Of a stretch of DNA of 57,871 bases, positions 15,461 to 43,902 are shown piece by piece; the first letter of the stretch is position 1, and the number at the start of each line of letters is the position of its first letter. A model generated the notes under the pieces. The model had not been told where the DNA came from. It ran no database searches and saw nothing but the letters and a program-made list of their open reading frames with translations. The position numbers and the translations under genes were made by a program. Origin of the DNA: Oscillospiraceae bacterium (GTDB lineage Bacteria; Bacillota; Clostridia; Oscillospirales; CAG-272); NCBI GenBank assembly GCA_015065045.1, contig SVRB01000001.1, positions 1 to 57,871 on the forward strand, in the 5' to 3' direction.

Positions 15461-15505
15461 TTTTCTTATATTTTTCTCCCCGTAAATTAAATATTTTAAA
15501 AAATC

Positions 15506-28466: not shown

Positions 28467-28661
28467 AAACATCCTCCGCTGGAAGTTCAAAATATATACA
28501 TATTTATTGTACAATATATCGCTTTTATTGTCAAGTTTTTCTGTAAAATATATAATTATAGTACAAACTTTTTATTATTTATATATTATATTTCAAACAA
28601 TCAAGTATATTAAAAAAAGCTGCGTTATGATTTAACCTCATACCGTAGCTTTTATTATTCT

Positions 28662-29237: not shown

Positions 29238-29268
29238 AACATCTTTCCCTCTTTGTTCTATCCGAATT

Positions 29269-29901
29269 CTATCCGAGCGCACCTATAACATCTACAGCAT
29301 TCTTTCCGACGATAACGTCCGCTCGTTCTTTTATGTAAAGCAACCATTCCTTGCTCGAAAGTCTCTTTCCAAACTCGTTTGCAAGGTCGCTTTTGCTTAC
29401 GCTTTTCCTTTTTCTCCCCTGTTGGTTCTGCACTACTTCTTCCTGCAACAAAAGATAATATCTAACCGTTGCGCTATCGCTTTTGTCAGAATAAAACGAG
29501 CTCTCATTCCTATATCCGTTCCTTTTTAAAATACAGCACGCCGATATAGCATCGTCTATATTCTCAAAAGAATACAAGCAGTTCTCCCTCTTATTCCTTA
29601 CGTTCGGAGATTTATCCTTTGTTCTTTTGTCTATTTTACCGTCGTTTTCCTTCTCATCGCAGTTAAGAGTTACATACACCTCACATCCGCCGTTCTTCGA
29701 CGGATACACCTGTATAAAAATACGATCTGAGGTACTGTTAAATCCTGTCTTCTCCCTTGCCTCATCAAGAAGCTTTTCAAAGACACGTCTCGTTTCTTTC
29801 TTCTCGTAACTCAAATACTCGTTTGATATGGAATAATTCTCCATATCGTCTGCCGTAAGCATTATTTTCAGCTTTGACTCGCTAATCAAAATCAGCTCCA
29901 T
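29269..29901 (-). CDS. mecA: MecA-like adaptor protein
   Basis: The N-terminus MELILISESKLKIMLTADDMENY...RIFIQVYPSKNGGCEVYVT is MecA-like. The start is taken at the ATG at 29901; the track uses the GTG at 29913. Confidence 0.6.
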   Translation of the reverse strand: MELILISESKLKIMLTADDMENYSISNEYLSYEKKETRRVFEKLLDEAREKTGFNSTSDRIFIQVYPSKNGGCEVYVTLNCDEKENDGKIDKRTKDKSPNVRNKRENCLYSFENIDDAISACCILKRNGYRNESSFYSDKSDSATVRYYLLLQEEVVQNQQGRKRKSVSKSDLANEFGKRLSSKEWLLYIKERADVIVGKNAVDVIGALG

Positions 29902-30012
29902 CTTCCCACTCACCCTTTACAATATCTATACATCTATTATAGTTACTAACATTATAATCGATGAGTACAAAAAATGTAACTGCAAACTTTTTGGCAAATT
30001 CGGAAAATTACG

Positions 30013-30966
30013 TCAGAATTCGCCCTTTAATGAACGAGTAAACAACGCCTTCAATGCGGTATCGGGATCTGCTCCGTTATACAAAATATCATACACTGCA
30101 TTACATATCGGCAAATCAACGTTATACATATCCGCTAACTTTAGTATAGCCTTTACCGTATAATATCCCTCTGCCAAGCTGCCGTACTGTTCACCCTTAG
30201 CAAAAGTCTCTCCATACATTCTGTTATGGCTAAATTTTGAAAACAACGTCGCTTCATAATCTCCCAAATGGCAAAGACCGTAAGCTGACAATTCGTTTCC
30301 GCCGAGCGCTGTTATCAATCGAGCTACCTCTCTTGTTCCTCTTGACATAAGCGCGCCCTTAAGAGATGAAAGTCCCTTTCCGTCAAGCAATCCTGCCGCG
30401 ATACCTATTACGTTCTTTGCTGCAGCGCCGATTTCGTTTCCTATAAGATCCTTGCCGTAATAAAAACGAATAAGATCGCTTGAAAACTGAGATATAAGAT
30501 ATTCCTGATACTCGCTGTTGTCACTGTCTATAACCATACAGTTCGGAATTCCCTTTGTAAATTCCTCAACGTGTCCGGGGCCTATCCACACGGCAATCTT
30601 AGTCTCGGGAGTTGTCGCTTCTCTTACTACCTCGCTAAGTCTCATACCTGTAGATATTTCTATACCCTTCATACAAAGTATGTATTCCTTTTCTGAAGCA
30701 CCATACTGCTGGAGCTCCTGCATTAACCCTCTTACTGCCTGCGACGGAATCGAAATAACTATCGTCTTGTTTTTTACGGCAACATTTATATCATCTGTAA
30801 TATTCATTCTATCGCTAAACTGACAAACACCGTTTGTGCGTGTTTCCATTATGCCTCTGATCTGCTTAAGATCATTTCCGTAAAGCGTTACGTTATGGCC
30901 TATCTTATCAAGATACCACGCTATACATGAACCCCATCTGCCACAACCTATTACTGTTATATCCAT
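30013..30966 (-). CDS. gpsA: NAD(P)H-dependent glycerol-3-phosphate dehydrogenase
   Basis: The N-terminus MDITVIGCGRWGS forms a Rossmann fold, and GAAAKNVIGIAAG is present. The start at 30966 sits behind GGAGGAATATAT. The track's 26-aa extension looks spurious. Confidence 0.85.
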   Translation of the reverse strand: MDITVIGCGRWGSCIAWYLDKIGHNVTLYGNDLKQIRGIMETRTNGVCQFSDRMNITDDINVAVKNKTIVISIPSQAVRGLMQELQQYGASEKEYILCMKGIEISTGMRLSEVVREATTPETKIAVWIGPGHVEEFTKGIPNCMVIDSDNSEYQEYLISQFSSDLIRFYYGKDLIGNEIGAAAKNVIGIAAGLLDGKGLSSLKGALMSRGTREVARLITALGGNELSAYGLCHLGDYEATLFSKFSHNRMYGETFAKGEQYGSLAEGYYTVKAILKLADMYNVDLPICNAVYDILYNGADPDTALKALFTRSLKGEF

Positions 30967-31057
30967 ATATATTCCTCCATAAATCAGAGCGTTTTTTCTG
31001 TACTTTATAACCAACATTTTAGCACATTTCCACCTTAGTGTCAATACGTTCTGTGGG

Positions 31058-31086
31058 GAGAAAAAACAGTTTCATTTTGGTATAAT
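31058..31086 (+). promoter_or_regulatory. extended -10 promoter in front of terS
   Basis: TGgTATAAT lies at 31078-31086. The -35 is poor (GAGAAA). Confidence 0.4.
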
Positions 31087-31148
31087 ACACTCCGAGCAAT
31101 AACAGTTGTATATCCACTATTTCTATTACTTTTTTTAAAACGAGAGAG

Positions 31149-31625
31149 GTGATCAACATTATTTTAGACTACGAAAAAGCCGAGGATGAATACATCTCAT
31201 CCAATCTCTCCTACGCAGCCTTAGCAAGTAAATACAACATTCCCTTAAGATTACTTGCAAGGTACGCAAAAGACAATAACTGGGTTCAAAAAAGAAAGCA
31301 ATATAACACCTCGCCTGATATGCCCACGCTTGACGTTTCAAAATTAGCGCGCTCTTCAGACACCTTAGAGTCTATTATCGAAAACGCTTTCATATCCGTA
31401 TCAGAAGCATCCGCCGTAAACGGAGACGTTGATACAAAAACCCTTAAAGAGCTTACTTCCACACTCAAAGAAGCCATTAACATCAAACAAAACATCTTTC
31501 TCCTCCCAATTCTCACCGAACAAAAACAGCTTGAATACGAGCAAAGAAAAAATCCCGCCACTATTACATCAGAAAACGAGATTCGAGTCATACTTGAAAA
31601 CGATGCGGAGAAATACTGTATGTGA
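31149..31625 (+). CDS. terminase small subunit (HTH-type)
   Basis: ~158 aa lying directly upstream of terL, with an HTH-like segment LSYAALASKYNIPLRLLARYAKDNNWVQKR. The start is uncertain because there is no in-frame ATG; the GTG at 31149 sits inside the SD GAGGTGAT. Confidence 0.65.
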   Translation: MINIILDYEKAEDEYISSNLSYAALASKYNIPLRLLARYAKDNNWVQKRKQYNTSPDMPTLDVSKLARSSDTLESIIENAFISVSEASAVNGDVDTKTLKELTSTLKEAINIKQNIFLLPILTEQKQLEYEQRKNPATITSENEIRVILENDAEKYCM

Positions 31626-31634
31626 GGTGATATC

Positions 31635-33017
31635 TTGAAGCATATTTCTTTAGGTATTCCCAATCCTAAGCAAGCTGAGTTCCTTCTTGACAGGCATCGC
31701 TTTGTCGCATTCGGCGGAGCAAGAGGCGGCGGCAAATCCTGGGCTGTCAGAGTCAAAGCTGTTTTACTTGCGCTTAAATATTCGGGCATAAAACTACTTA
31801 TTATCAGAAAAACGATCCCCGAGCTTCGCAACAACCACATTACTCCTCTCATAGAGACTACAAAAGGACTTGCCTCATACAATGATTCAAAAAAAGAGCT
31901 TATATTCAAAAACAATTCTCTTATTCGCTTCGGCTACTGCGCCTGCCAAGCTGATCTCACTCAATACCAAGGGTCTGAGTGGGACGTTATTTTTATTGAT
32001 GAGGCTACTCAGCTTAAGGAAGAATGGTTTGATGAGTTAAAAGTTACCGTCAGAGGTGTAAACAGCTTTCCAAAAAGAGTATACCTCACCTGTAACCCCG
32101 GCGGTGTCGGTCATTCGTGGGTAAAACGATTATTTATCGATCGAGTATACAAAGACGGCGAAGACCCGAACGATTATAGCTTTATACGCTCTCTTGTCAG
32201 CGACAACAAAGCTCTTATGGATTCAAATCCCGACTACGCAAAACAGCTTTCCTCACTGCCTCCAAAGCTTAGAAAAGCCTGGCTTGACGGTGACTGGAAT
32301 ATATTTGAGGGACAATTCTTTGAAGATTTTATCGATGCTCCCGAGCATTACGATGATCGACGTTTCACCAACGTTATAGAACCCTTCGAAGTTCCGCCCG
32401 AATGGAATATCGTTCGAAGCTTTGACTGGGGATTCGCAAAACCTTTTGACTGCTCGTGGTGGGCTATTGACTATGAAGGGCGGGCATATCTTATTTTGCA
32501 TTTTTACGGAAGCAACGGGGTGCCTAACGAGGGATTAAAATGGCATGCCGAAAAGGTATTTGCAGAAATTCACAGAATCGAATCAGAACACAGATGGCTT
32601 AAAGGCAAATCAATTACCGGTGTAGCTGATCCGTCTATATGGAGTGAAGACGGCGGTGAACCTATTATTGCCGCAGCGGACAGGCATCAAGTCTTTTTTC
32701 AAAAAGCTGACAACAGTAGAATTCCAGGTTGGATGCAAGTCCATTACAGGCTCGCCTTTGATAACGATGGGAAGCCTATGGTCTACTTTTTCAACACCTG
32801 CAAGCACGCCATCAGAACGCTCCCTCTTTTACAGTTCAGCAAAACCCACCCTGAAGATCTTGATACCTCTCAAGAAGATCACTTTGCCGATTCGTTCCGT
32901 TATTTCTGTATGTCAAAACCTATAAAACCACAAAAGCATATCATTACCCAATACGCTGCTGCCGACCCGCTAAACCTGCTAAACACTCAAAATTACAGAA
33001 AATACAGCTATGTATAA
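31635..33017 (+). CDS. terminase large subunit
   Basis: 460 aa with Walker A FGGARGGGKSW, Walker B VIFIDEATQL and the C-terminal nuclease motif EDHFADSFRYF. It uses a TTG start 3 nt after GAGGTGAT. Confidence 0.9.
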   Translation: MKHISLGIPNPKQAEFLLDRHRFVAFGGARGGGKSWAVRVKAVLLALKYSGIKLLIIRKTIPELRNNHITPLIETTKGLASYNDSKKELIFKNNSLIRFGYCACQADLTQYQGSEWDVIFIDEATQLKEEWFDELKVTVRGVNSFPKRVYLTCNPGGVGHSWVKRLFIDRVYKDGEDPNDYSFIRSLVSDNKALMDSNPDYAKQLSSLPPKLRKAWLDGDWNIFEGQFFEDFIDAPEHYDDRRFTNVIEPFEVPPEWNIVRSFDWGFAKPFDCSWWAIDYEGRAYLILHFYGSNGVPNEGLKWHAEKVFAEIHRIESEHRWLKGKSITGVADPSIWSEDGGEPIIAAADRHQVFFQKADNSRIPGWMQVHYRLAFDNDGKPMVYFFNTCKHAIRTLPLLQFSKTHPEDLDTSQEDHFADSFRYFCMSKPIKPQKHIITQYAAADPLNLLNTQNYRKYSYV

Positions 33018-33046
33018 GCTTTATTATTCAGAAATGGAGAAAGTCT

Positions 33047-34966
33047 ATGAAGAAAAAACACAACAAAAAAATTCCGGACAAAAAACTTGTTTCATCAATC
33101 TATCTTGAAAAAAATTCGAACGGGCTTTTCGATCCCGATTATTCTCCCGATAAAATCAACAAAAGCTCTATTGATAAAGCATACTCGCTTTTAAAAAATT
33201 ATAAAGCGGGAAAAACCAATCTTGAAAGAAGGGTTACAGAAAACGAGCTCTGGTGGAAAATGCGCCATTGGGAACAGATACGCGATAGAAACCGTAAATA
33301 CAATCCTGCTTCCGCGTGGCTTTTTAACGCTATTGCAAACAAGCACGCTGACGTTATGGATAACTGTCCTGAAAGCATTGTTCTCCCCAGAGAAAAAAGC
33401 GACTCCGATGCCGCAAAACAGCTCACCGAAATCCTTCCCGTTATACTTGAGCAAAACTCCTTCGAGGAAATCTATTCTGATGTTTGGTATGACAAGTTAA
33501 AAGGCGGAACAGGTGTATACGGCATATTCTGGGATCCCTCTCTTAACAACGGCACCGGAGATATTGCAATCAAAAGATGTGATATTTTAAATCTTTTTTG
33601 GGAACCCGGAGTATCTGATATTCAAAAATCTCCCAATCTCTTTCACGTTGAACTTTTCAACAACGACGAGCTTGAAGCGAAATATCCTTCCCTTCACGGC
33701 AAGCTTGGAACCAACGGCTTCAACGTTACCAAATACCACTACGATGATGCTGTTGACACAAGCAATAAAACTCCCGTTATCGACTGGTACTACAAAGTCA
33801 ACAACAACGGAAAAACAGTTCTTCATCTTTGCAAGTTCTGTGCTGACGAGATCCTCTATTCCTCGGAAAACGACATCGATCTTTACAACAAAGGCTACTA
33901 TGATCACGGGCTTTATCCCTTTGTCTTTGATAAGCTCTTTAACGAACAAGGTACGCCTTGCGGATTCGGATTTATTGACATAATGAAAGATACTCAAACG
34001 CAGATCGATCTTATGAGCGCTTCAGTTTGCGAAAACATAAGAATGTCTTCAACTGTTCGTTATTTTGCTAGAGGCGATGGTTCTATAAACGAAAAAGAAT
34101 TTGCCGACTGGAGCAATCCTATAGTGCATTATACAGGTTCCGGTAACCCTAATGACAGCATGACTCCTATCAAAGTTTCCGGTATATCTCCTCTTTACGT
34201 ATCCTTTATTGATAATAAAATAAACGAGCTTAAAGAAACCACGGGAAACTCCGATTTTACACGCGGTAATACTGCATCAGGCGTTACAGCCGCATCGGCA
34301 ATCGCCGCACTTCAGGAAGCAGGAAGCAAATTATCAAGAGATATGATAAAAGGCTCATACAGGATATTTGTTAAAATCAATAATCTCTTAATTGAGCTTA
34401 TCAGACAATTCTACGATTTGCCGAGATGCTTCAGAATCACAGGAGATAACGGTGAATATGAATTTGTTTCATACAGTAATGAAACTCTTTTGCCTCGTTC
34501 TATGGGCTCTTCATTCGGGGTTGATTTAGGAAATCGTTTGCCCATCTTCGATATCAAGGTTAAAGCTCAAAAACAATCTGCGTTTACTAAGCTTTCGCAA
34601 AACGAATTGGCTAAAGAATTTTACAGACTTGGATTCTTCAATCCTGCGCAAGCTGATCAGGCGTTGGCTTGTCTTGATATGATGGAGTTTGACGGCAAAA
34701 ATATTATTGCAGAAAAAATAAACGAAAAAAGCACTATCTATTCCAATTATTCGGAAATATATTCAAAGCTTCTTGAGCTTGCCTCTATAGTTGAAAAAGA
34801 CCATCCCGAGTTAAACGGTTTGTACGATGGGTTTGCTAAAAAATACACCCACTCTTCGTTCTCTCAGTCTAATTCATCTGCAAAAAAATACGCTAACACT
34901 AAAAAAAGTCTGTCAAGAATAGAAAAATCAAGACAGAGAGCGGCTAATTTGAGTACGCCGAGATAG
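33047..34966 (+). CDS. portal protein
   Basis: 639 aa lying immediately after terL. The call is by position and size; I did not recognise a family motif with certainty. Confidence 0.6.
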   Translation: MKKKHNKKIPDKKLVSSIYLEKNSNGLFDPDYSPDKINKSSIDKAYSLLKNYKAGKTNLERRVTENELWWKMRHWEQIRDRNRKYNPASAWLFNAIANKHADVMDNCPESIVLPREKSDSDAAKQLTEILPVILEQNSFEEIYSDVWYDKLKGGTGVYGIFWDPSLNNGTGDIAIKRCDILNLFWEPGVSDIQKSPNLFHVELFNNDELEAKYPSLHGKLGTNGFNVTKYHYDDAVDTSNKTPVIDWYYKVNNNGKTVLHLCKFCADEILYSSENDIDLYNKGYYDHGLYPFVFDKLFNEQGTPCGFGFIDIMKDTQTQIDLMSASVCENIRMSSTVRYFARGDGSINEKEFADWSNPIVHYTGSGNPNDSMTPIKVSGISPLYVSFIDNKINELKETTGNSDFTRGNTASGVTAASAIAALQEAGSKLSRDMIKGSYRIFVKINNLLIELIRQFYDLPRCFRITGDNGEYEFVSYSNETLLPRSMGSSFGVDLGNRLPIFDIKVKAQKQSAFTKLSQNELAKEFYRLGFFNPAQADQALACLDMMEFDGKNIIAEKINEKSTIYSNYSEIYSKLLELASIVEKDHPELNGLYDGFAKKYTHSSFSQSNSSAKKYANTKKSLSRIEKSRQRAANLSTPR

Positions 34967-34972
34967 TACAAC

Positions 34973-35010
34973 AAAAAATGGATACTTATTTCTATAAGCA
35001 TCCATTTTTA
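34973..35010 (+). terminator. intrinsic terminator-like hairpin after portal
   Basis: The hairpin is ATGGATACTTAT-ttct-ATAAGCATCCAT (one mismatch) followed by TTTTTAT. Confidence 0.55.
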
Positions 35011-35144
35011 TTCGCCGATTTTATCTTCTCTCCCCACTCAACTTGTCATCTAACTGACCTTACGGGGAGAGATAAAACAGATTTTATAGTATAATATCAC
35101 ACGAGTTAAAACAACACTCTGACACTTCGGAAAGGAACGATGTT

Positions 35145-35966
35145 ATGAAAAAAACACTTTTACCCATTAAAATTTCTCTTCAGTTTTTTGCATCAGAGGA
35201 ACTCTCTGTCGAGGATCCTTCTAATTCAAATGGTGCCGCATCACCGCAAACACAAGAAATATCTAACTCAGCTTCTGTCGACAACAACTTGGACGACAAT
35301 CAGCTTGAAGAAGAGTTCGAAAAGCTTATTAAGGGCGGAAAGTATGAAAACGCTTTCAAAAAAAGAACACAGGGCATTATTGACAAGCGTTTTAAAAACT
35401 TGAAATCCCTTGAAGAAGCACAGGCAAAACAGCAGCCTGTACTCGATTTTCTCTCCAAAAAATATGGAATTGACTCTTCTGATACGGATACTCTTCTCAA
35501 AAAAATGCAGAACGATGCTCTTGCTGACAAGCCTAATGAAATGGGTAATGCTGAAAAAAACGAACTACACATGAGAAACCGCTATATTGCAAACAAAGCA
35601 AAAATGCTTCACGACAAATGGACTGCCGAGGGAGATAGCTTAAAAAGCATTTTCCCTGATTTCGATTTCAAAACCGAACTTAAAAATCCTGTTTTTTCCT
35701 CGCTTTTAAAAAACGGTATGTCTGTAAGAAAAGCATATACAGCGGCTCACTCGGATGAGATCATTAAAAATGCAGTATCCGGAACTGCAAAAAGGGTCGC
35801 CGAGCAAACTCTCAAAAGTATTCGTGCTCAGGGCAGTCGCGTTGCCGAAAACGGACTCCATAACGGCGCGGGAATAGTCCGTAAAACTGACGTATCTACT
35901 CTTACCGGAGACGAGATACGCTCCATTCTTAAGCAGGTCGAAAACGGTTCTAAAATAAAATTTTAA
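35145..35966 (+). CDS. head scaffolding protein
   Basis: 273 aa. The N-terminal LQFFASEE motif is common in Firmicute phage scaffold proteins. The protein is helical and charged and lies directly upstream of the MCP. Confidence 0.65.
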   Translation: MKKTLLPIKISLQFFASEELSVEDPSNSNGAASPQTQEISNSASVDNNLDDNQLEEEFEKLIKGGKYENAFKKRTQGIIDKRFKNLKSLEEAQAKQQPVLDFLSKKYGIDSSDTDTLLKKMQNDALADKPNEMGNAEKNELHMRNRYIANKAKMLHDKWTAEGDSLKSIFPDFDFKTELKNPVFSSLLKNGMSVRKAYTAAHSDEIIKNAVSGTAKRVAEQTLKSIRAQGSRVAENGLHNGAGIVRKTDVSTLTGDEIRSILKQVENGSKIKF

Positions 35967-36033
35967 TTTGACCTGCTAACTAAAAAATTCCTGCCTATTA
36001 AACTTTATTTTTTAGAAAAGGAGATCATTATCT

Positions 36034-37368
36034 ATGGGAAACACAACCTCTTACGGAGCAAACAGTATAGTTCACGGCACAGAAGGTTTTATTAACGCCA
36101 ACTCCGGTACTACCGAAAATTATAACGGTGGCGGCCTTTCTGCCGAAATGAAAACATTCTACGATAAAACACTTTTGGAACTCGCTTCCCCCAACCTCGT
36201 TCATATGCAGTTTGGTCAGAAGCGTTCAATCCCCCCTCACGGCGGCAGAACGATCGAATTCCGCAAAATGAAGCCCTTGGCTAAGAACGCAAACACAATA
36301 ACAGAAGGTATTACTCCTGCAGGCTCAAAGATGACTGTTGTTCCGCTCACTGCCACACTCAATCAGTACGGCGATTATATTGAACAGACAGACCTTATTG
36401 AAACAACTTCAATCGACAACACTGTTATTGAAGCTACAAAGCTTCTTGCCGATCAGGCAGGCAGAACTCTCGATACTGTTGTTCGTGACGTTCTTCAGAC
36501 AGGCACTAACGTATACTACTGTCCCAATAATATGGGAGAATACATGGAAGAAGTTTATTCTCGATCATATCTCGACTACGGTTCAAGACTCCGCGTCGTA
36601 GACGTATTCAAAGCAGCTGCTCAGTTAAAAGCACTCAACGTTCCTACTATTGACGGTAAGTATGTAGCTATTATACATCCTCACGTAGCATTCGACCTCA
36701 TGCAGCAGTCAGGCGACGCGTGGATCGACATTAAGAAATATGCTGACCCCGAAAACATTCTCAACGGTGAAGTTGGTACATTGGGCGGCGTAAGATTTGT
36801 CGAATCTTCCGAGGCTAAGATCAATTATGGTAAGCTTCTTGATGAAAACGTTGGACATCTTAAAATCAAATCGTACACGAACAACGGTACAAATTCAGTT
36901 TCTGACGGTTGCGGAATTACTACACCATATCAGATTACTGTCGAAGGAAAGTTCGACTCTGACATTGTAGGCAGATTGATTCAGTTGAATAATCCTGCTT
37001 ATGAAAGCTTTACAGCATACAAGGTAGTCGGAGCTAATATTTCAAGCAACATCTTGTTTATAGAAAACAAGCTCGGTGATGAGGATTATACAAATTTATA
37101 TCTTTATGCAGGCGAAGGCGGTAGATTCGGAATTGCAACCTACTCCACATTGTTCCTCGGCCGTGACGCTTACGGCATTATCGATATAAATGGTTCCGGC
37201 ACTATCGAACATATCGTTAAGCAGAGAGGCTACGGAAATGACCCTCTTAACCAGAGAAGCTCTATCGGTTGGAAGGCATTTATGGCAGCTGCAATCCTTG
37301 CTGACGAATACATTCTTCGTGTTGAATCTTGCTCTTCATTCTCTTATGACATCAAAGAAGCTAACTAA
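36034..37368 (+). CDS. major capsid protein (HK97-fold, N4-gp56-like family)
   Basis: 444 aa with motifs QFGQKRSIPPHGGRTIEFRK, TEGITPAGSK and ATLNQYGDYI, in the position after the scaffold gene, followed by its own terminator. Confidence 0.75.
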   Translation: MGNTTSYGANSIVHGTEGFINANSGTTENYNGGGLSAEMKTFYDKTLLELASPNLVHMQFGQKRSIPPHGGRTIEFRKMKPLAKNANTITEGITPAGSKMTVVPLTATLNQYGDYIEQTDLIETTSIDNTVIEATKLLADQAGRTLDTVVRDVLQTGTNVYYCPNNMGEYMEEVYSRSYLDYGSRLRVVDVFKAAAQLKALNVPTIDGKYVAIIHPHVAFDLMQQSGDAWIDIKKYADPENILNGEVGTLGGVRFVESSEAKINYGKLLDENVGHLKIKSYTNNGTNSVSDGCGITTPYQITVEGKFDSDIVGRLIQLNNPAYESFTAYKVVGANISSNILFIENKLGDEDYTNLYLYAGEGGRFGIATYSTLFLGRDAYGIIDINGSGTIEHIVKQRGYGNDPLNQRSSIGWKAFMAAAILADEYILRVESCSSFSYDIKEAN

Positions 37369-37382
37369 TAACTAACAAAATC

Positions 37383-37419
37383 GGGGGCTTCTTCTAACCA
37401 AGAAGTCCCCCTTATATAT
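37383..37419 (+). terminator. terminator-like hairpin after MCP
   Basis: The hairpin is GGGGGCTTCTT-ctaacc-AAGAAGtCCCCC. The following tract is T/A-rich rather than a clean T-run. Confidence 0.45.
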
Positions 37420-37476
37420 TATAAAATACAACTGTTTTTTGCTTAATATTTAATATTTATATAAAGGAGTTTTTTT

Positions 37477-37707
37477 ATGAAAAACACAATAAAAGATAAA
37501 CAGAATGTTCTCAACGAATTGGTTCCGATCTTTATTCCCAAAAGATATAAAGAAGATGATGTACGTACCGTTTCTGTAAACGGAAAATACAAAACTATTC
37601 CTACAGGCAAACAGTTTTTTGTCGAAAGATACTTTGCTGAAGCAATTCAAAACTCTATGATAGCTGATGAAATGGCAGAAAAATATAAAAGAACTGTATG
37701 TAAATGA
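37477..37707 (+). CDS. hypothetical small phage protein
   Basis: 76 aa behind AAAGGAG. It overlaps the next ORF as ATGA. Confidence 0.5.
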   Translation: MKNTIKDKQNVLNELVPIFIPKRYKEDDVRTVSVNGKYKTIPTGKQFFVERYFAEAIQNSMIADEMAEKYKRTVCK

Positions 37708-38090
37708 GGTGCCTTATGACATTAAGAGAGGCTATTTCAAAGTTTGACAGAGAATCAAAAAATAATATTCCTGACGATATTAAAATCGAGTGGGTATCAT
37801 TACTTGACTCTGCAATCTATAACGACATAATTCTTACTCACGAAACAAAAACACCCCTTTCATTTAGCGGTTACACAACGCAAACCGACGACAATACAGT
37901 TCTGCTTGTCCCCGAACCGTTTTCTGATATATACTTGCGTTTTCTTACCATTAAAAAAGACCTTTATCTCTCCGATATCTCAAGATACAACAATGACGTT
38001 GTACTTTATTCAACAGCATATCGCGATTTTGAAAACTATTACAACAGAAATAACATGCCTATTAAAAAAACATATTATTTCAATGCTTAA
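37704..38090 (+). CDS. hypothetical phage structural protein (possible head-tail adaptor by position)
   Basis: 128 aa. An alternative start exists at 37716 (MTLREA). No motif was recognised. Confidence 0.5.
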   Translation: MRCLMTLREAISKFDRESKNNIPDDIKIEWVSLLDSAIYNDIILTHETKTPLSFSGYTTQTDDNTVLLVPEPFSDIYLRFLTIKKDLYLSDISRYNNDVVLYSTAYRDFENYYNRNNMPIKKTYYFNA

Positions 38091-38117
38091 TCCATCTAAT
38101 TTAATAGGGGGTGTAAA

Positions 38118-39914
38118 ATGTTTTTCCCAAAATTAAAACCCTATAAACTTTCAGAAAACACAATTTCAACATTTGGTGGTATTGATAAAAATGCTGTAGG
38201 TATTGAAAATCTCTTCTTTGATACGCAAAACACAACCTCAGCAAACTTCCCTCTTGTTTCAACAAGAGAAAAAAGGGTAACTCTTACCACACTGAACAAC
38301 GTCCCCTCTGCCCTTCACACAACCAACGGCATTACCTTTGTTCTCGGAAGTTCGCTGTATTATAACAACGTACTTCAATTCTCCGGACTTGACACCACCA
38401 GCAAAAAGCAAATTGTGTCAATGGGAAGCAATATTATTGTTTTCCCTGACAACTATTATATTGACACAATGACACTTAACGAAAACGGTGTCTGTAAAGA
38501 AAAGGGATACCTTAATTGCCTGACATCCTTTAATCAAGTCGATATATGTGTTTATCCTTGCATACTTGGTATGTCTTACCCCTTTATCAGTGATACACAG
38601 CCCCAAAATCCTACTGACAGTATGCTTTGGCTTGATATTTCCTCAATCCCCAATAAAATGTTTATATACTCGTCGCAATCTAACACCTGGAGTGATATTG
38701 TCCCTACGCATATCTGCATAATGGCAGACCATATACATGAAGGTATTAAAGTTGGTGATGGAGTTGAAATCAGGGGTATTGGGGACGGAATTGACGGTCA
38801 GCATATAATTGCGGGCGTTGAAGAAAGTATAATATATATTTCCGGATATATTGATAGATACACTGAAATTTCATTGGGGACTAAAGAATCTTACTCCATT
38901 GAACGCTCGGTTCCCGTTATGGACTTTGTTTGCGAACATCAAAACAGACTGTTTGGGTGCCGTTACGGACTTAACAAACAAGGTGAGTTTGTTAATGAAA
39001 TATACGCTTCAAAGTTGGGAGACCCAACAAACTGGAACGTATATCAGGGATTATCTACCGACAGCTATTCAGCTTCATGCGGAAGCGAGGGTGAGTTTAC
39101 GGGTATTGCTTCATATATGGGCAATGTTCTTTTCTTTAAAGAAAACAGTATCCACCGTTTGCACGGCACCAAACCATCAAACTTTACCCTTTATAATGAT
39201 AATTATCCCGGAATTAAAAAAGGCTCTTACCCCTCTCTATGTATCTGCAACGGTTCTCTGTTCTACCATTCCAACGAAGGTATCTATTCATATTCGGGAA
39301 GCTCTCCCGTATTTATCTCAAGAGCCTTGGGGTTTGATAAATTTACAGATGCTGTCGCTTCAGTTGGCAAAAATATGTACTTTGTTTGCATGACTGATAA
39401 AAACCAAAACAGGCAATTATACGTTTATGATTTTATTAGAGAAATATGGCACAGACACGATAGCTCAAATTATTTATTCCTTTCAAAATATGATAACAAT
39501 ATTTTGGGCATTAAGCGTTTTGAAAACAAATATACGCTTGAACTTTTATTCTCATCGGAAATCCCTGAAAAATGTCAATCATTTTTCTCAAGCTCAATGA
39601 AAATTGAAAATAATTTTGATTGGTATGCAGAAAGCGGACTTATCGGGCTTTCATTTGATGATTGTAAATATCTAAACAAGCTTAAAGTTCGTGTTGAAAT
39701 AGATAAGGATAGCTCGTTTTCTATCTATGTACAAACTGACTCGGAACAGAATTGGGAGCTGTTCGAAACTTTGACAACCACTAAGCTTACCTCTAGAACA
39801 CTGCATATTCTTCCTCCTCGATGCGACCATTTCAGGCTGAAATTTGCAGGAAAAGGAAACTTCAAGCTATACTCTATAACTAAAGTTATTGAAAATGCAG
39901 GAGAGGTGGTATAA
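38118..39914 (+). CDS. large phage structural protein, beta-propeller-like
   Basis: 598 aa behind AGGGGGTG. Repeated strand-turn segments such as GNVLFFKENSIHRL, NGSLFYHSNEGIYSY and KNMYFVCMTD suggest a propeller. Family unknown. Confidence 0.55.
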   Translation: MFFPKLKPYKLSENTISTFGGIDKNAVGIENLFFDTQNTTSANFPLVSTREKRVTLTTLNNVPSALHTTNGITFVLGSSLYYNNVLQFSGLDTTSKKQIVSMGSNIIVFPDNYYIDTMTLNENGVCKEKGYLNCLTSFNQVDICVYPCILGMSYPFISDTQPQNPTDSMLWLDISSIPNKMFIYSSQSNTWSDIVPTHICIMADHIHEGIKVGDGVEIRGIGDGIDGQHIIAGVEESIIYISGYIDRYTEISLGTKESYSIERSVPVMDFVCEHQNRLFGCRYGLNKQGEFVNEIYASKLGDPTNWNVYQGLSTDSYSASCGSEGEFTGIASYMGNVLFFKENSIHRLHGTKPSNFTLYNDNYPGIKKGSYPSLCICNGSLFYHSNEGIYSYSGSSPVFISRALGFDKFTDAVASVGKNMYFVCMTDKNQNRQLYVYDFIREIWHRHDSSNYLFLSKYDNNILGIKRFENKYTLELLFSSEIPEKCQSFFSSSMKIENNFDWYAESGLIGLSFDDCKYLNKLKVRVEIDKDSSFSIYVQTDSEQNWELFETLTTTKLTSRTLHILPPRCDHFRLKFAGKGNFKLYSITKVIENAGEVV

Positions 39915-40837
39915 TGCAGCTCAATATCACACTCCCCTCTCTTTCGGATATTTCCGACAAGCAAAATTATAATAAAATTAAAGGTTATCTTGAAACACTA
40001 CATAATCAGCTTCAATATATGATGGTGAATATTGAAGACGATAATCTCTCTGATAATCTATCAGACACAATAAACACGGCATATCAAACAGCAAACCTCA
40101 CAAAAGAAACAACTGTCTTACTTGATGATAAATTATCAAAAGTCAGCCAAACAGCTGACAAAATCAACTGGCTTATACAAGACTCAAATTCATCAACCGA
40201 CTTTTCTCTTACGAGTTATGCCGCATCGTTAATTTCTGATACTATCAATATAACCGGTTACGTAAAATTCTCTGATCTCGAAAAATCAGGAAACACAACC
40301 ATCAACGGAAGCAATATAAAAACCGGCTCTATTTCCGCAGACAAGCTTTCTGTAAACGACCTATCCGCGTTGTCCGTCAGAATAGGTGGTTGGTATCTTT
40401 CTCCAACCTCCATCTCAAGTAACTTGAACGGCATGGGTTCTATCTTTTTTAATTCAGCCGAATCAGAGGATAATTACTGGATCAAAGCCTATGACGTTTT
40501 CGGTGATGTATCATTTTCTATTTCAAAAGACGGTACCTGCTTTATGAATGGCGATTATATTGCCAACGGCACTGTTTCTGCCGACAAAATCACAACAGAT
40601 TCAAACAAAAGACTTGATCTTTTGAATAATTATATGGGAACAAGAATCGGTAAAGAGCTCTGTATTTCTTCGCCTGATATAAATTGCCGACTTTTTATTA
40701 ACAACGCTAACATACTCACCTTTGATACAGGCACCGGAAACAGCGCTTTCTCTTTTGCTTTAAACAGAAACGGCTCGTCATACAGTTTATCTGTTCTTAA
40801 TGGATCCGGAACTGTTGTAGGTACGATAAATCTATAA
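39914..40837 (+). CDS. tail fibre / receptor-binding-like protein
   Basis: 307 aa. It has an N-terminal coiled-coil and the motif INGSNIKTGSISADKLSVNDL, typical of Firmicute phage tail fibre proteins. The start overlaps the preceding stop. Confidence 0.6.
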   Translation: MQLNITLPSLSDISDKQNYNKIKGYLETLHNQLQYMMVNIEDDNLSDNLSDTINTAYQTANLTKETTVLLDDKLSKVSQTADKINWLIQDSNSSTDFSLTSYAASLISDTINITGYVKFSDLEKSGNTTINGSNIKTGSISADKLSVNDLSALSVRIGGWYLSPTSISSNLNGMGSIFFNSAESEDNYWIKAYDVFGDVSFSISKDGTCFMNGDYIANGTVSADKITTDSNKRLDLLNNYMGTRIGKELCISSPDINCRLFINNANILTFDTGTGNSAFSFALNRNGSSYSLSVLNGSGTVVGTINL

Positions 40838-40859
40838 TTTAAACCATCAGGAGCGTCAT

Positions 40860-41240
40860 ATGAAATTAAAAAACAAAGACATTCTAAAATCGGTAAACTC
40901 TTTAAAATATCTATATGAAAAAGATAATATTCCCTTTTCTGCTGCCCTTGCAATCAGCGATAACATCTTATTGATTGATAAATTCTTAAGTAAATATTTT
41001 TTACAAAAAGAAGAAATAGACAATAAGCATCTCACCAAAGGCTCTGATAATACCGATACGCAAAGCACTGAAAAGTCATCTATCATCTACGGCCATGAGG
41101 AAGATTATCTCAAAGAAATTACAGAATTAAATGAAAAGATTATCGATATAAATATTAAAAAAATTTCTCCTAAAGAATTATTTAATATTTCCTTTTCTCC
41201 CAAATATATTGAAGGAATTTCATTTATGCTCGATAAATAA
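40860..41240 (+). CDS. hypothetical phage protein
   Basis: 126 aa behind AGGAG. No motif was recognised. Confidence 0.5.
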   Translation: MKLKNKDILKSVNSLKYLYEKDNIPFSAALAISDNILLIDKFLSKYFLQKEEIDNKHLTKGSDNTDTQSTEKSSIIYGHEEDYLKEITELNEKIIDINIKKISPKELFNISFSPKYIEGISFMLDK

Positions 41241-41263
41241 TTATTTGATAAAGAGGTGATATT

Positions 41264-42175
41264 TTGTCAAACGCTTATAACTTAACAAACAAATATAAAG
41301 AAAGTAAAAAAGTCAAAGATGCCTTTGAAAAATATAATACGTACAAAAACACAAATAAGCCCAACGACTATTCTTATTCCGACTCTGAACTTTTATCAAA
41401 AACGCAGGATAAGTATTTCAATTACGGTGATTTTTCCTACGATGCCTCAAATGACCCTGCGTATATTCAATATAAGCAGATATATCAGTCAAACGGCAAA
41501 AAGGCTATGGAAGATACTGTCGGTAACGTATCTTCTCTTACAAGTGGATATGGTAATTCATACGCTTTGACAGCAGGTATGAATTCATATAATCAGTATA
41601 TGGAACAGCTGAACGAAGTCATTCCCGAACTCTACTCTGCAGCCTATTCCCGTTACGAATCCGAGCTTGACAGACTTGAAAACAAGCTTAGTTATTTGTC
41701 AAACAAGGATAAAACCGAGTACGATAGATATTTGGATCAATACGACATTTATTCCAGCGAAGTCGATTCACTGCGCGATCTTTACCTAAATGAATATAAA
41801 AACGATATTGCTATTCAGGAAGGCGAATGGGAAGATGCCTATAAATATTATTCGGCAAACCTTGATAAAGAAATGTTTGACAGCGAGCTTGCATACAAAA
41901 AAGAAGCTGACGCTACTGACAACTTTTATCGTTTCTATGATCTTTTGCTTGATGCAAGCAAAAACTCTCAAGCTATAGCAGAATCCAAAAACAACAATAA
42001 AGAAACGTTGCGCGAAGATGAAATATATGTAATTCTTGGCAAATACGGAGAGTATGATGCATTGGCAGCTCTTGATATGAACTATGACAGTGATGAAATG
42101 GTCAGAAACAAAGCTCTCGCTATGGGTATAGAAAAATCATATGTCGATGCTTATTTTGATGCAAAGAAAAAGTAA
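41264..42175 (+). CDS. hypothetical phage protein (Y/N/D-rich)
   Basis: 303 aa with a TTG start 3 nt after GAGGTGAT. No motif was recognised. Confidence 0.5.
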   Translation: MSNAYNLTNKYKESKKVKDAFEKYNTYKNTNKPNDYSYSDSELLSKTQDKYFNYGDFSYDASNDPAYIQYKQIYQSNGKKAMEDTVGNVSSLTSGYGNSYALTAGMNSYNQYMEQLNEVIPELYSAAYSRYESELDRLENKLSYLSNKDKTEYDRYLDQYDIYSSEVDSLRDLYLNEYKNDIAIQEGEWEDAYKYYSANLDKEMFDSELAYKKEADATDNFYRFYDLLLDASKNSQAIAESKNNNKETLREDEIYVILGKYGEYDALAALDMNYDSDEMVRNKALAMGIEKSYVDAYFDAKKK

Positions 42176-42224
42176 CAAAATATCAAGCAAAACACTATAA
42201 TATAATGATATACAGGAGACTGAT

Positions 42225-42305
42225 ATGGCATATACATACAACAAAAACAATAAAACAACAAAACGACATTCCTTTATACCTTATTCGATCGAGGTGATCA
42301 TATGA
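42225..42305 (+). CDS. candidate 26-aa micro-ORF coupled to the lysis cassette
   Basis: My own reading gives ATG at 42225 behind CAGGAGAC and the peptide MAYTYNKNNKTTKRHSFIPYSIEVII. Its stop overlaps the next ATG as ATGA. It is not in the ORF track because it is too short. Confidence 0.3.
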   Translation: MAYTYNKNNKTTKRHSFIPYSIEVII

Positions 42306-42544
42306 ATCCCGAGCTCTTTATGTCACTTACCGGTGTTTTAGGAAGCTTTTTAGGCACACTTGCCGGTATAATGATCAACTCAAAGCTGATGAATTACAGA
42401 ATCGAACAGCTCGAAAAAAAGGTTGACAAACATAACAAGGTTATTGACCGTGTTTACAGCCTCGAAAAACACACCGCAATCATCGACGAAGATATCAAGG
42501 TTGTTAATCACCGTATATCCGACCTTGAATTATATCACAAATAA
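42302..42544 (+). CDS. small N-terminal-TM / coiled-coil protein of the lysis cassette
   Basis: 80 aa with one TM segment (LTGVLGSFLGTLAGIMI) followed by a heptad-like helix. It lies directly upstream of the holin. Confidence 0.55.
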   Translation: MNPELFMSLTGVLGSFLGTLAGIMINSKLMNYRIEQLEKKVDKHNKVIDRVYSLEKHTAIIDEDIKVVNHRISDLELYHK

Positions 42545-42566
42545 CTTTTTGAAAGGTGTTGTCTAT

Positions 42567-42800
42567 ATGAAAATAAATTGGAAAAGAAAGCTTACAAGCA
42601 GAAAATTTTGGATGGCTATAGTGGGGTTCACTACTCCGCTCATGATTGCTTTTGGCATTTCTAAAGATACCGCTTCTCAGGTTGCCGGAATAATTATGTC
42701 AGGAGCTTCCTGTATTGCATACATACTTGGAGAAGGCCTTGTGGATGCGGAAAATCTCTCTAATTCAAATTACACGCATATGACTGATTTTAAAGAATAA
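42567..42800 (+). CDS. holin (phi LC3-like family)
   Basis: The start is set at the ATG at 42567 behind GAAAGGTG. MKINWKRKLTSRKFWMAIVGFTTPLMIAFG plus a second TM segment matches the INWK...FW pattern of phi LC3-type holins. Confidence 0.7.
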   Translation: MKINWKRKLTSRKFWMAIVGFTTPLMIAFGISKDTASQVAGIIMSGASCIAYILGEGLVDAENLSNSNYTHMTDFKE

Positions 42801-42816
42801 AAAGGAGTAGATTCAG

Positions 42817-43857
42817 ATGAAAAAATTTGGAATAGACATCTCCAGATGGCAGGGAGATTTTAACTTGTCCGCCGCTGTCAAAGAAGGTGTTTCATTCATT
42901 ATCTTAAAAGGCGGAGGAGGAGATGACGGCCTATATACAGATAGCAAATTCGAAGAAAATTACAATACCTCCAAAAAACTTAATATCCCCGTTGGAGTAT
43001 ATTGGTTCAGCAAAGCCGTTACCACGGAGGATGCAATCTCTGAAGCTGATTACTTTTTTAAAAACATTCTTCAGTCCAGACAGTTTGAGCTTCCTGTTTT
43101 TATCGACGTTGAGCATGAAGAAATGCTCAGCTTAAATAAAGACAAGGTTACCGACATCATAAAAAGCTGGTGTAGTTACCTCGAAAATAAAGGATACTGG
43201 GTAGGTATATACTCAAGCGTATATGCTTTCTCAAAGCATATGAATGACAAAGAGCTTGAAAAATATACACACTGGGTCGCTCAATGGTCTAAAGAGTGTA
43301 CATACAAAAACAAAGACATTTTGGGCTTTTGGCAGTTCGGCGGAGACACAAACCTCTTACGCTCAAATACGATTGCAGGAGTTGTATGCGACCAAAACTA
43401 TATGTATTCTGATTTTCCAAAGCTGATCAAAGAAAAAAACCTTAACGGCTTTTCAGATTTATCGCAAAATGCCCCCCCTGTTTCAGCAACGCCCCGCAAA
43501 TCGGTAGGAGAGCTTGTACAGGAAGTTATTGCAGGAAAATGGGGTAATGGTAATGACAGAAAAAACAAGCTTACCGATGCAGGTTATGACTACAACGAGG
43601 TTCAATCGGCTGTTGACGCTTTTCTTTCTAAGAAAACATCTCCCTCTAAGAACAACGTTATTAAAGGCGGCGATCTTGTCAGGTTATCAGCCGATGCGGT
43701 AATTTACGGTACAAACAGTAAATTTGCTGACTTTGTTTATAAAAATTTACTCTATGTCAGAGAATTAAACAACAACAGAGCGGTAATTTCCACAGTTCCC
43801 GATGGCCCCATCACCGGTGCCGTTGATGTTAAATATTTAACCAAACACAATCCGTAA
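42817..43857 (+). CDS. endolysin: GH25 muramidase + CW_7 (Cpl-7-like) + C-terminal SH3-like binding region
   Basis: 346 aa. FGIDISRWQG matches GH25, and GKWGNGNDRKNKLTDAGYDYNEVQSAVD matches CW_7. Confidence 0.9.
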   Translation: MKKFGIDISRWQGDFNLSAAVKEGVSFIILKGGGGDDGLYTDSKFEENYNTSKKLNIPVGVYWFSKAVTTEDAISEADYFFKNILQSRQFELPVFIDVEHEEMLSLNKDKVTDIIKSWCSYLENKGYWVGIYSSVYAFSKHMNDKELEKYTHWVAQWSKECTYKNKDILGFWQFGGDTNLLRSNTIAGVVCDQNYMYSDFPKLIKEKNLNGFSDLSQNAPPVSATPRKSVGELVQEVIAGKWGNGNDRKNKLTDAGYDYNEVQSAVDAFLSKKTSPSKNNVIKGGDLVRLSADAVIYGTNSKFADFVYKNLLYVRELNNNRAVISTVPDGPITGAVDVKYLTKHNP

Positions 43858-43860
43858 AAC

Positions 43861-43902
43861 AAAATCTCCCGAACACACATAACTGTTCGGGAGATTTTTA
43901 TT
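43861..43902. terminator. bidirectional terminator (endolysin / CapD-like gene)
   Basis: The hairpin is AAATCTCCCGAACA-cacataac-TGTTCGGGAGATTT, followed by TTTATTTTATTTTT. Confidence 0.85.

Follow-up and report, generated by a model that had tools for sequence, protein, structure and literature searches.

A podophage-like packaging-to-lysis cluster, a candidate gene transfer agent, in uncultured gut Oscillospiraceae

What keeps a set of phage packaging, head, tail, and lysis genes intact in a bacterial chromosome when genes for integration, lysogeny, and replication do not accompany it? This question is raised by a 12.8-kb cluster in a 57,871-nucleotide stretch of DNA from an Oscillospiraceae bacterium (NCBI GenBank assembly GCA_015065045.1, contig SVRB01000001.1, positions 1 to 57,871, forward strand), which we call the window. 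A sequence-only reading of this DNA had suggested a gene transfer agent (GTA)-like or otherwise domesticated particle, and the comparative analysis described here supports that suggestion: the cluster occupies the same locus in ∼13 lineages, its genes evolve with ratios of nonsynonymous to synonymous divergence (dN/dS) of 0.02-0.21, and its synonymous divergence (dS) is close to that of the host genes beside it. We are highly confident that these are domesticated particle genes that are inherited vertically and remain functional. A GTA-like role, with particles that package DNA and are released by lysis (a "viriform"), appears probable, at roughly 0.65, and the genes point to a ∼40-kb Page-like podophage of Firmicutes as the most likely ancestor.

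Gene content, inheritance, and selection

The cluster comprises 14 intact plus-strand genes between positions 31149 and 43857, all co-oriented, as judged from the list of open reading frames (ORFs) and from scans with PHROG, Pfam, and NCBIfam models; the co-oriented, intact block described earlier stands, with 14 genes in place of the 15-16 first counted. In order, they encode TerS, TerL, the portal, a scaffold, the major capsid protein (MCP), a 76-aa protein, a 124/128-aa protein, a tail nozzle, three fibre-region proteins of 307, 126, and 303 aa, an XhlA-like protein, a holin, and an endolysin. The scans and translations agree with the canonical terS-to-endolysin order that had been proposed, including the TerL Walker A and B motifs, the LQFFA scaffold, and the GH25/CW_7 lysin, and all 14 genes have packaging, structural, or lysis functions. 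The block is embedded in a minus-strand housekeeping run, where Pfam matches and the ORF list place it, again as proposed, between gpsA (30013-31044, minus strand) and a CapD-like polysaccharide biosynthesis gene (43903-45780, minus strand). MecA (29269-29913) and then UDG (28662-29282) lie beyond gpsA, and an aspartokinase gene (45809-47137) lies beyond the CapD-like gene (all by Pfam); the ORFs tested to the left and right of the block, out to the window ends, are housekeeping genes. A strong intrinsic terminator with a 15-bp stem and a T run (43861-43898, plus strand; terminator-like scan) closes the cluster. Transcription of the cluster opposes that of all neighboring genes, an orientation kept in syntenic species, and the negative GC skew across the window suggests that it also runs against replication.

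None of the ORFs in the block matches an integrase, repressor, or replication family in the PHROG, Pfam, and NCBIfam scans, in line with the absences noticed from the letters alone. The reported lack of flanking direct repeats and tRNA genes held up as well: no att-type direct repeats of at least 14 nt bracket the block, short internal chance repeats being the only ones found, and the closest tRNA genes (50152 and 55956) are >6 kb away. An Rfam scan of positions 30000-45000 at E values up to 1 gave no match. Megablast of the 12.8 kb against 50,697 phage records gave none either, so no deposited phage is closely similar to the element. Nor is it an assembly artifact, since the identical 12.8 kb (100%) is present on contigs from three other samples, including L163 (L numbers denote comparison loci). 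Chromosomal, phage-derived particle genes without replication, integration, or lysogeny genes are thus found here, as in GTAs and viriforms.

A scan for the portal motif in 185,579 GTDB species genomes gave 75 matches. The cluster lies beside gpsA-MecA-UDG, beside the CapD-like and aspartokinase genes, or beside both in ∼13 species-level lineages; the clade consists of 11 GTDB species representatives together with the window and L086. Its hosts are uncultured "Oscillospiraceae/Eubacteriales/Clostridia" metagenome-assembled genomes (MAGs), the names of many of which refer to gut samples from ruminants or other herbivores, and it is found in long bacterial contigs only. Portal proteins are at least 69% identical within the clade (69-95%) versus at most 59% outside it, and nozzle proteins at least 42% versus at most 37%. 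The gpsA-MecA-UDG genes adjoin terS in nearly all clade loci, and the endolysin gene adjoins the CapD-like and aspartokinase genes in most loci whose fetched DNA reaches the right end (this flank was found in L081, L083, L167, and L168). The whole arrangement of gpsA-MecA-UDG, cluster, and CapD-like gene recurs in L081/L088 (portal 88% identical) and L083/L092 (82%), among others. A sporadic, att-flanked occurrence, which the sequence-only reading had set against domestication, is not what these lineages display.

The cluster is interrupted or split in some species. A minus-strand host block encoding an ABC transporter (746-749 aa) and a DUF1854 protein, with a c-di-AMP receptor as well in L084, lies between portal and scaffold in L084 (12123-15219), L091 (12463-15202), and L096 (12799-15956). 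The most divergent version, L086/L167, is split by a helix-turn-helix (HTH)-cupin-AMP-binding host gene into halves of opposite orientation, of which the terS-portal half abuts gpsA-MecA-UDG and the scaffold-lysin half abuts the CapD-like and aspartokinase genes. A single old insertion followed by rearrangement of the host genome would leave such a pattern, and the cluster has remained beside these host genes while its carriers diverged to the level of species and genera. The portal-scaffold junction seems to be a rearrangement hot spot.

Selection acts throughout the cluster. ORFs keep their lengths (MCP 443-449 aa, nozzle 597-599 aa, TerL 453-463 aa), and Nei-Gojobori estimates on unsaturated pairs (L093, L095, L096, and L156) give dN/dS values of 0.02-0.03 for TerL, 0.04-0.05 for the portal, 0.05-0.07 for the MCP, 0.05 for the 76-aa protein, 0.09 for the 124-aa protein, 0.08-0.13 for TerS, 0.13-0.20 for the scaffold, 0.16-0.21 for the nozzle and fibre-region genes g8-g10, and 0.03 for the fibre-region gene g11. 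The flanking host genes give 0.035 (UDG), 0.06 (gpsA), and 0.17 (MecA). All cluster genes are under purifying selection, with an overall range of 0.02-0.21, and the pseudogenizing mutations that had been named as a possible counterargument did not appear, apart from one split MCP gene in one IMG/VR contig. In the same pairs, dS is 0.42-0.89 for element genes and 0.72-0.80 for the host genes on the flanks; it already reaches ∼2 when the window is compared with the closest sister species. The protein identities of host and element are of similar size and correlate with r = 0.56 over 55 pairs, a value that is only modest because the clade is largely star-like; the correlation is consistent with vertical descent and is not proof of it alone. 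Conserved flanks, dN/dS, and dS near that of the host flanks together document vertical inheritance and purifying selection, a further trait of GTAs and viriforms. The check that the sequence-only reading had proposed, an intact cluster at one locus in diverged genomes with dN/dS below 1, thereby gave a positive result. Separately, we note that dS over the scaffold and MCP genes (35145-37368) is 0.32-0.66, below the 0.64-0.89 of terL, portal, and host flanks in the same pairs, as expected if codon usage for high expression constrains synonymous sites.

Predicted particle genes and their expression

TerS (31158-31625, plus strand) was assigned from matches to phrog_1206 (terS) and phrog_4151 and from its position directly upstream of terL. 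The mechanical ORF begins at a GTG (31149) that lies within the Shine-Dalgarno sequence (31146-31163 region). A candidate ATT start at 31158 sits 8 nt past the GAGG core of this near-perfect Shine-Dalgarno sequence, GAGGTGATC / GAGGTGAT, and this noncanonical codon is the probable start: ATT or ATA occupies the equivalent site in 11 of 11 loci (the window, L081, L083, L084, L086, L089, L090, L094-L096, and L156), with ATA in L081, L095, and L086, and an in-frame TGA just upstream in L090 and L084 excludes ATG, GTG, and TTG starts. Gene callers assign TerS lengths of 116-209 aa. The conservation of a weak start codon suggests that translation is deliberately low or regulated. AlphaFold2 models TerS (pLDDT 75.6) with an HTH-like bundle of four helices at its N-terminus, a pair of long helices, and strands at its C-terminus, and the protein matches a PHROG annotated as "DNA binding protein"; Pfam gave no match for the HTH, and the Foldseek search of the model was not significant. 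We tentatively propose from the model that TerS retains an N-terminal HTH-like domain.

TerL (31635-33017, plus strand) combines an ATPase and a nuclease, with matches to phrog_2 and phrog_979 (7e-39) and to Pfam Terminase_3 and Terminase_6N; its translation contains Walker A (GGARGGGKS) and Walker B (VIFIDE) motifs, and it scores below threshold against the NCBIfam "PBSX family" TerL model (67.7 bits, cutoff 105). The portal (33047-34966, plus strand) is of the P22/SU10 type (phrog_156 at 5.7e-75; PF16510, PF23899). The MCP (36034-37368, plus strand) belongs to the N4-gp56 family, with an HK97 fold and a ∼90-residue insertion (TIGR04387 at 240 bits, cutoff 60; phrog_1357 at 4.7e-75). A GC-rich hairpin with an 11-bp stem follows the MCP gene (37383-37410, plus strand; terminator-like scan) and is possibly a partial terminator or attenuator.

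The scaffold (35145-35966, plus strand) was identified by phrog_13908 (7.9e-45) and by its position between portal and MCP. Its N-terminus reads ...KISLQFFASEE and contains the L27-like Prp cleavage site LQFFA. Such an LQFF↓A site mimics ribosomal protein L27 and would be cut by the protease Prp, a mechanism known for staphylococcal phage 80alpha. Scaffold homologues in phages carry NLQFF or NLQLF motifs and are accompanied by a Prp gene, which also follows the portal in the basal clade member L086 (12047-12376) and in relatives L087 (11637-11960), L105, and L132. The window has none, and its portal-scaffold gap (34967-35144) is only 178 bp; by this comparison, the window sub-clade has lost the phage Prp. 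Retention of LQFFA despite that loss implies reliance on the host ribosomal Prp.

In one sub-clade, an intact ORF of 110-117 aa, absent from the window, follows the portal (L156 12006-12335; L096 12008-12334; L095 6054-6383; L093 2366-2692; L091 11914-12234). It was considered as a Prp and ruled out, as it matches a DnaD-like helicase loader of phages (phrog_8489, E down to 1e-63), of which it covers only the N-terminal ∼113 residues. It is under purifying selection (dN/dS 0.07-0.17), and viral contig L066 has homologues of it upstream of terS. The ORF may be a fragment of a replication gene exapted as a DNA-binding regulator.

Two small genes follow the MCP. The 76-aa virion-associated protein (37477-37707, plus strand; phrog_15239) is a head-tail connector candidate, found at 68-78 aa in all clade loci and present in phage relatives as well. 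The 124-aa protein (37716-38090, plus strand; 128 aa if started from an ATG at 37704) matches phrog_12105 at 6e-32 and is an adaptor or connector candidate; its gene always directly precedes the nozzle gene, in clade loci and phages alike. The 598-aa nozzle itself (38118-39914, plus strand) was identified by fold only. Its AlphaFold2 model (pLDDT 89.8, pTM 0.84) matches in Foldseek the tail complexes of LME-1, E1004, T7 (6r21, 7boy), P22 (8eap_D), and SU10 with E values of 1e-14 to 1e-11, among them 6.5e-14 for 8eap_D and 1.7e-13 for the T7 gp12 structure 7boy, which makes it a nozzle of the T7 gp12/P22 gp10 type. Sequence searches of the PDB with the nozzle, TerS, and MCP gave nothing useful. 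The PHROG and Pfam scans found no sheath, tube, tape-measure, or baseplate families; with a nozzle present and sheath, tube, and tape-measure proteins absent, the particle would be short-tailed.

The fibre region comprises a 307-aa tail fibre or tail tip protein (39914-40837, plus strand; PF09327 Phage_Tail_Tip at 1.9e-5 and a weak phrog_1101 tail match), a 126-aa protein (40860-41240, plus strand; phrog_1401, an assembly or linker candidate) that is encoded in some clade members only, and a 303-aa protein of the fibre or receptor-binding region (41264-42175, plus strand; tblastn versus phage loci). The last is 303-406 aa long across species; phage relatives match residues ∼10-180 only, and the N-terminal ∼170 residues are common to both. 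Around the 307-aa protein, the region evolves fast and in a modular way, with 33-72% identity and with the gene absent or replaced in some species; as the most variable part of the cluster, it behaves as expected for receptor recognition. Lysis would fall to an 80-aa XhlA-like membrane protein, a lysis accessory (42302-42544, plus strand; phrog_1863 at 3.7e-12) that is 84-89% identical between species and scores 21.5 bits against PF10779 XhlA, under the cutoff of 34.7; a 77-aa holin (42567-42800, plus strand; phrog_297 at 7.8e-8, gene call in the identical contig L163); and an endolysin with a GH25 muramidase domain and a CW_7 cell-wall-binding repeat (42817-43857, plus strand; PF01183 at 7.7e-32, PF08230 at 2e-18, phrog_291).

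Two candidate promoters share one signature. P1 (31055-31086, plus strand), read in the sequence upstream of terS, has the form GGGGAGA-N19-TATAAT and carries the extended -10 element TGgTATAAT at 31078-31086 that had been reported before the first gene. P2 (35064-35095, plus strand), GGGGAGAG-N18-TATAAT, lies upstream of the scaffold and matches P1 in signature and spacing. The pattern RGGGAGA-N19-TAnAAT precedes terS in all clade loci that hold terS (11 distinct loci), and P2 precedes the scaffold in every clade locus, including those in which host genes part portal from scaffold; P2 would explain how expression from scaffold to lysis genes continues there. Within the window, 0.04 chance matches to the pattern are expected and three were found, two of them the operon starts. 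The third (15450-15481, minus strand) was dismissed as a chance match, formed by the Shine-Dalgarno sequence and first codons of cmk (MFKIALDGPSG...). Across 2.55 Mb of loci there are 43 matches, 42 of which stand at both operon starts of clade members and the remaining one at the cmk ribosome-binding region; none occurs in ∼140 phage, prophage, or other loci. The cluster is, on this sequence evidence, predicted to be two transcription units, terS-terL-portal and scaffold-to-endolysin, under one clade-specific promoter signature. The upstream element of P1 and P2 is not TTGACA-like and no regulator gene lies inside the cluster; we infer that they are read by an activator or an alternative sigma factor whose gene lies at another place in the genome.

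Just before the scaffold start lies a 26-nt leader, CTCTGACACTTCGGAAAGGAACGATG (35117-35142, plus strand), with a Shine-Dalgarno-like GAAAGGA. It is 100% identical in 13 distinct clade loci despite saturated synonymous sites in the coding regions, and variants of it (CTGACACTTCGGAAAGGACGATG and similar) precede the scaffold in the phage relatives L005, L006, L048, and L097. The leader may stabilize the mRNA, act as a translational operator, or be a processing site. A short hairpin on its 5′ side seemed to covary (GAGTT/AACTC, GAGCT/AGCTC, GAGCG/CGCTC), but the fourth pair forms in only 6 of 13 loci; we claim no structure. The two candidate promoters and the invariant leader can be used as handles for genome-wide searches.

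Phage ancestry, known systems, and rival explanations

Portal homologues with 43-59% identity occur in IMG/VR viral contigs, many of ∼40-45 kb, and in prophage-like loci, where the gene order is terS, terL, portal, (Prp), scaffold, MCP, two small genes, nozzle, and fibres. In L005 (41 kb), the one viral contig checked, genes for a replication initiator, a resolvase, a methyltransferase, and an NTP pyrophosphohydrolase lie immediately upstream of terS. Judged by the MCP, the nearest cultured relatives are Page, Pony, and Pookie, podophages of Bacillus megaterium of ∼40 kb (34.5% identity), and MCP identities of phage relatives to the window span 34-58%. In a neighbor-joining (NJ) portal tree, a quick distance tree, the phages form clades separate from that of the window among the matches listed. 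Phages with the same module plus replication genes thus exist, which bears on the possibility, raised earlier, that the cluster is a truncated remnant of a complete phage; with portals only ∼43-59% identical and in separate clades, it is not a recent truncation of those phages. Page-like podophages and the uncultured ∼40-45-kb podophages of gut Clostridia have the structural module and its order in common with the cluster, and the uncultured relatives a related scaffold leader motif too, but the phages lack the RGGGAGA-N19-TAnAAT promoters.

The sequence-only reading knew of no such element in this lineage. One has since been characterized in the same broad family: FpGTA of Faecalibacterium prausnitzii, a podovirus-like GTA (Borodovich et al., Nat Commun 2026; PMC12946183). 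Its 10.5-kb operon I encodes TerS, TerL, portal, Prp, scaffold, an "N4-gp56 family" MCP, and a nozzle matched to PDB 8eap, and its 5.5-kb operon II, ∼125 kb from operon I, encodes fibres, a receptor-binding protein, holin, and endolysin (CP030777 2536737-2546346 and 2672270-2677176; proteins RCH50844-RCH50853 and RCH48794-48797; MCP RCH50849.1, nozzle RCH50846.1; PMC12946183). FpGTA is near-ubiquitous within its host genus, lacks replication and integration genes, and forms 40-nm capsids with ∼9 kb of host DNA; the same study observed GTA-like packaging in several Oscillospiraceae, Ruminococcaceae, and Christensenellaceae as well, without an encoding locus being found (PMC12946183). By family names and fold labels, the cluster described here has the same repertoire, MCP family, and nozzle type. 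In both systems, the nozzle gene lies three genes past the MCP gene, there are two transcription units, replication and integration genes are absent, and a podovirus-derived element resides in gut Ruminococcaceae/Oscillospiraceae. The two differ in that the operons are contiguous here (with a host-gene split in sister species) and ∼125 kb apart in FpGTA, that Prp is absent from the window sub-clade and present in FpGTA between portal and capsid genes, and that the host here is an uncultured, low-GC (∼39%) herbivore-gut lineage. The TerS of FpGTA has no obvious DNA-binding domain, a point for which its authors cite the RcGTA TerS study (PMC12946183), whereas TerS here apparently keeps an HTH-like N-terminus. 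Particles and ∼9-kb DNA are demonstrated for FpGTA, whereas the present cluster is known from its genes. No Faecalibacterium locus is among the 75 portal-motif matches in the GTDB species genomes, so the cluster is probably not a close orthologue of FpGTA, and independent domestication from the same phage group seems more likely than descent shared with FpGTA. GTAs have been well characterized almost only in Alphaproteobacteria, and FpGTA, in 2026, is the first gut-commensal podovirus-like example. The cluster adds a sequence-defined candidate locus in an uncultured herbivore-gut lineage; such packaging has so far been tied to a locus only in Faecalibacterium.

Two classical systems provide further points of comparison. 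RcGTA of the Alphaproteobacteria is siphovirus-like, with a tape-measure protein and tail tube, has its lysis and some structural genes at separate loci, and is controlled by CtrA and GafA. Like RcGTA, the present cluster encodes a particle without replication or integration genes, is vertically inherited under purifying selection, and probably has its regulators outside; the two are unrelated in sequence, and the host phyla differ. PBSX of Bacillus subtilis is a defective, phage-like killer particle of ∼28 kb that is myovirus-like, with a contractile tail, packages host DNA, keeps a repressor and sigma-like regulators (Xre, Xpf) in cis, and carries an xhlA-holin-lysin cassette. The XhlA-like/holin/lysin order is alike in the window, which has a podovirus nozzle instead of a contractile tail. 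A temperate prophage would be expected to differ in other ways: integrase, repressor/Cro, replication module, and att repeats were all looked for in the window cluster and not found.

Knowledge of tailed-phage assembly lets us propose how the GTA-like particle would work, beyond what gene content, promoters, and selection indicate. A host signal or chromosomal factor outside the cluster would switch on P1 and P2, probably in a subpopulation of cells. TerS would be made at a low level from its conserved AUU/AUA start, while procapsids assemble from the portal, the scaffold, and the N4-gp56-type capsid protein, with the scaffold trimmed at LQFF↓A by the host ribosomal Prp, as the sub-clade has lost the phage Prp gene. 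TerS and TerL would then fill heads with chromosomal DNA by a headful mechanism, and the connector proteins, nozzle, and variable fibres would complete a short tail. Lysis of the producer cell by the XhlA-like protein, holin, and GH25 endolysin would release particles that adsorb to related cells via the fast-evolving fibres and deliver DNA.

Several points weigh against this reading. Particles, their DNA content, and transfer in this lineage are deduced from the genes, and purifying selection shows that the genes are used, not for what. An ancestral ∼40-kb head, if kept, would hold the 12.8-kb cluster, unlike the heads of classical GTAs, and the HTH-like N-terminus modeled for TerS may mean that packaging is not random. 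Finally, in L091/L168 (GCA_045645205.1; 9500-10010), gpsA is followed by ∼430 bp of unrelated sequence and then directly by the portal; this locus lacks terS, terL, and P1, with the remaining cluster and P2 intact, and terS-terL may have moved to another place or disappeared.

Foremost among the rival explanations is a PBSX-like killer particle, which would kill or compete with related strains, or serve lysis-linked release, with DNA packaging incidental and no productive delivery. We judge it improbable. In its favor, no part of the cluster evolves faster or is more modular than the fibre and receptor-binding region (33-72% identity, genes gained and lost), and the lysis genes stand in the order known from PBSX. 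The authors of the FpGTA study leave the same role open for FpGTA (PMC12946183). TerL and the portal, on the other hand, are the most constrained proteins (dN/dS 0.02-0.05), which points to DNA packaging as a core function, and the tail is a podovirus nozzle without sheath, tube, or tape-measure protein. To our knowledge, there is no podovirus-type tailocin. PBSX keeps a terminase too, so constraint on the terminase leaves the killer particle standing as a rival. A less likely alternative still is a site-directed device resembling lateral transduction, in which TerS would recognize a pac site in the cluster and package the cluster and adjoining chromosome in one direction; as the element is unable to excise or replicate, this would occur in situ. 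The conserved HTH-like four-helix domain of TerS and its "DNA binding protein" PHROG match would fit such a device. Neither Foldseek nor Pfam lends the HTH statistical support, however, no pac site was identified, and the split and rearranged sister versions place different host DNA downstream, with no obvious conserved cargo. A broader version of this idea, which we regard as unlikely, is that podovirus-type GTA-like elements are general and have been repeatedly domesticated in gut Clostridia instead of being peculiar to Faecalibacterium, and that this member starts packaging at a fixed chromosomal pac site and exports, in one direction, the cluster and neighboring chromosome in a lateral-transduction-like manner, driven by a dedicated factor reading RGGGAGA-N19-TAnAAT.

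The two remaining explanations we consider very improbable. Everything needed for autonomous propagation is missing, as it would be in an inert cryptic prophage remnant whose decay has merely not yet begun. Such a remnant is contradicted by the selection analysis, with 14 of 14 genes intact across lineages whose synonymous sites are saturated (dS ∼2 or more), dN/dS of 0.02-0.21, and conserved ORF lengths; the promoters and the 26-nt leader are conserved as well, and flanking synteny and matching dS oppose recent horizontal copies. A helper-dependent satellite akin to a capsid-forming phage-inducible chromosomal island (PICI), an option that the sequence-only reading had kept in view, or a temperate phage with recurrent integration between gpsA and the CapD-like gene, could account for the compactness, for the element's own packaging and capsid genes, and, through site-specific integration, for a common chromosomal position across species. 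Genes for an integrase, an excisionase, replication, or a primase are lacking from the cluster, however, as are att repeats and a neighboring tRNA gene, and it has a nozzle, fibres, and lysis genes of its own. In sister species, it has received insertions of host genes, halves in opposite orientation keep both original flanks, and its dS matches that of the host flanks. A GTA-like, DNA-packaging particle thus remains the preferred account of the locus.

Other portal clades and neighboring genes

Three further groups of portal loci touch on how general such elements are. A second packaging-to-lysis cluster of the same phage family (L132 8062-20482; also L131, L134, and L135) contains terS, terL, portal, Prp, scaffold, MCP, 83-aa, 120-aa, nozzle, fibre (with a weak CBM match), and GH25 genes. 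The four loci, from four GTDB species ("Ruminiclostridium sp.", Oscillospiraceae SIG529), have 7-9 non-viral flanking ORFs in common; in L132, a ROK kinase gene, hprK, MIP, and azlC form the left flank, and a CAP-domain gene lies to the right. The ORFs tested included no integrase or replication gene, and the group looks like another domesticated clade.

Portal mini-loci form a clade present in bacterial genomes only, with portals 62-68% identical to that of L105. The three inspected (L105 9896-13839; L118 9971-13772; L157 9959-13416) contain the portal, a ∼100-aa protein (Prp in L105), and small ORFs, and two of the three encode a peptidoglycan hydrolase (M15 in L105, CHAP in L157). Housekeeping genes (among them ribF, sbcCD, gpr, spoIIP, a PBP1a gene, and recD2) flank them directly. 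Further members are L107, L108, L111, L114, L115, L119-L121, L126, L127, and L152. In ten mini-loci tested, no homologues of the TerL, MCP, or nozzle of the window were found within 10 kb, except for a weak nozzle match in L114; the mini-loci may belong to GTA-like systems dispersed over several loci, or they may be orphan relics. Another portal clade, of high GC (0.58-0.65) and seen in genomes only, comes from Oscillospiraceae/Faecousia MAGs and has the same core gene order (L099-L104, L106, L109, L110, L112, L113, and L122). Among the matches listed, all IMG/VR viral contigs branch outside this clade in the NJ tree, and its members are candidates for further GTA-like clusters, possibly nearer to FpGTA. 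These observations suggest that this phage family has been domesticated repeatedly in gut Clostridia; from the second syntenic cluster and the orphan portal-lysin mini-loci together, it seems that gene flow or competition there may commonly run through domesticated podophage particles.

Just past UDG, the window encodes two tandem proteins of ∼1030 aa (22024-25131 and 25437-28514, minus strand). No confident Pfam domain was found in them, and a homologue in L081 has a weak Big_3 match. They diverge faster (30-55% identity) than their neighbors (80-90%) and may be surface proteins; a link to the particle, for example as its receptor, is pure speculation.

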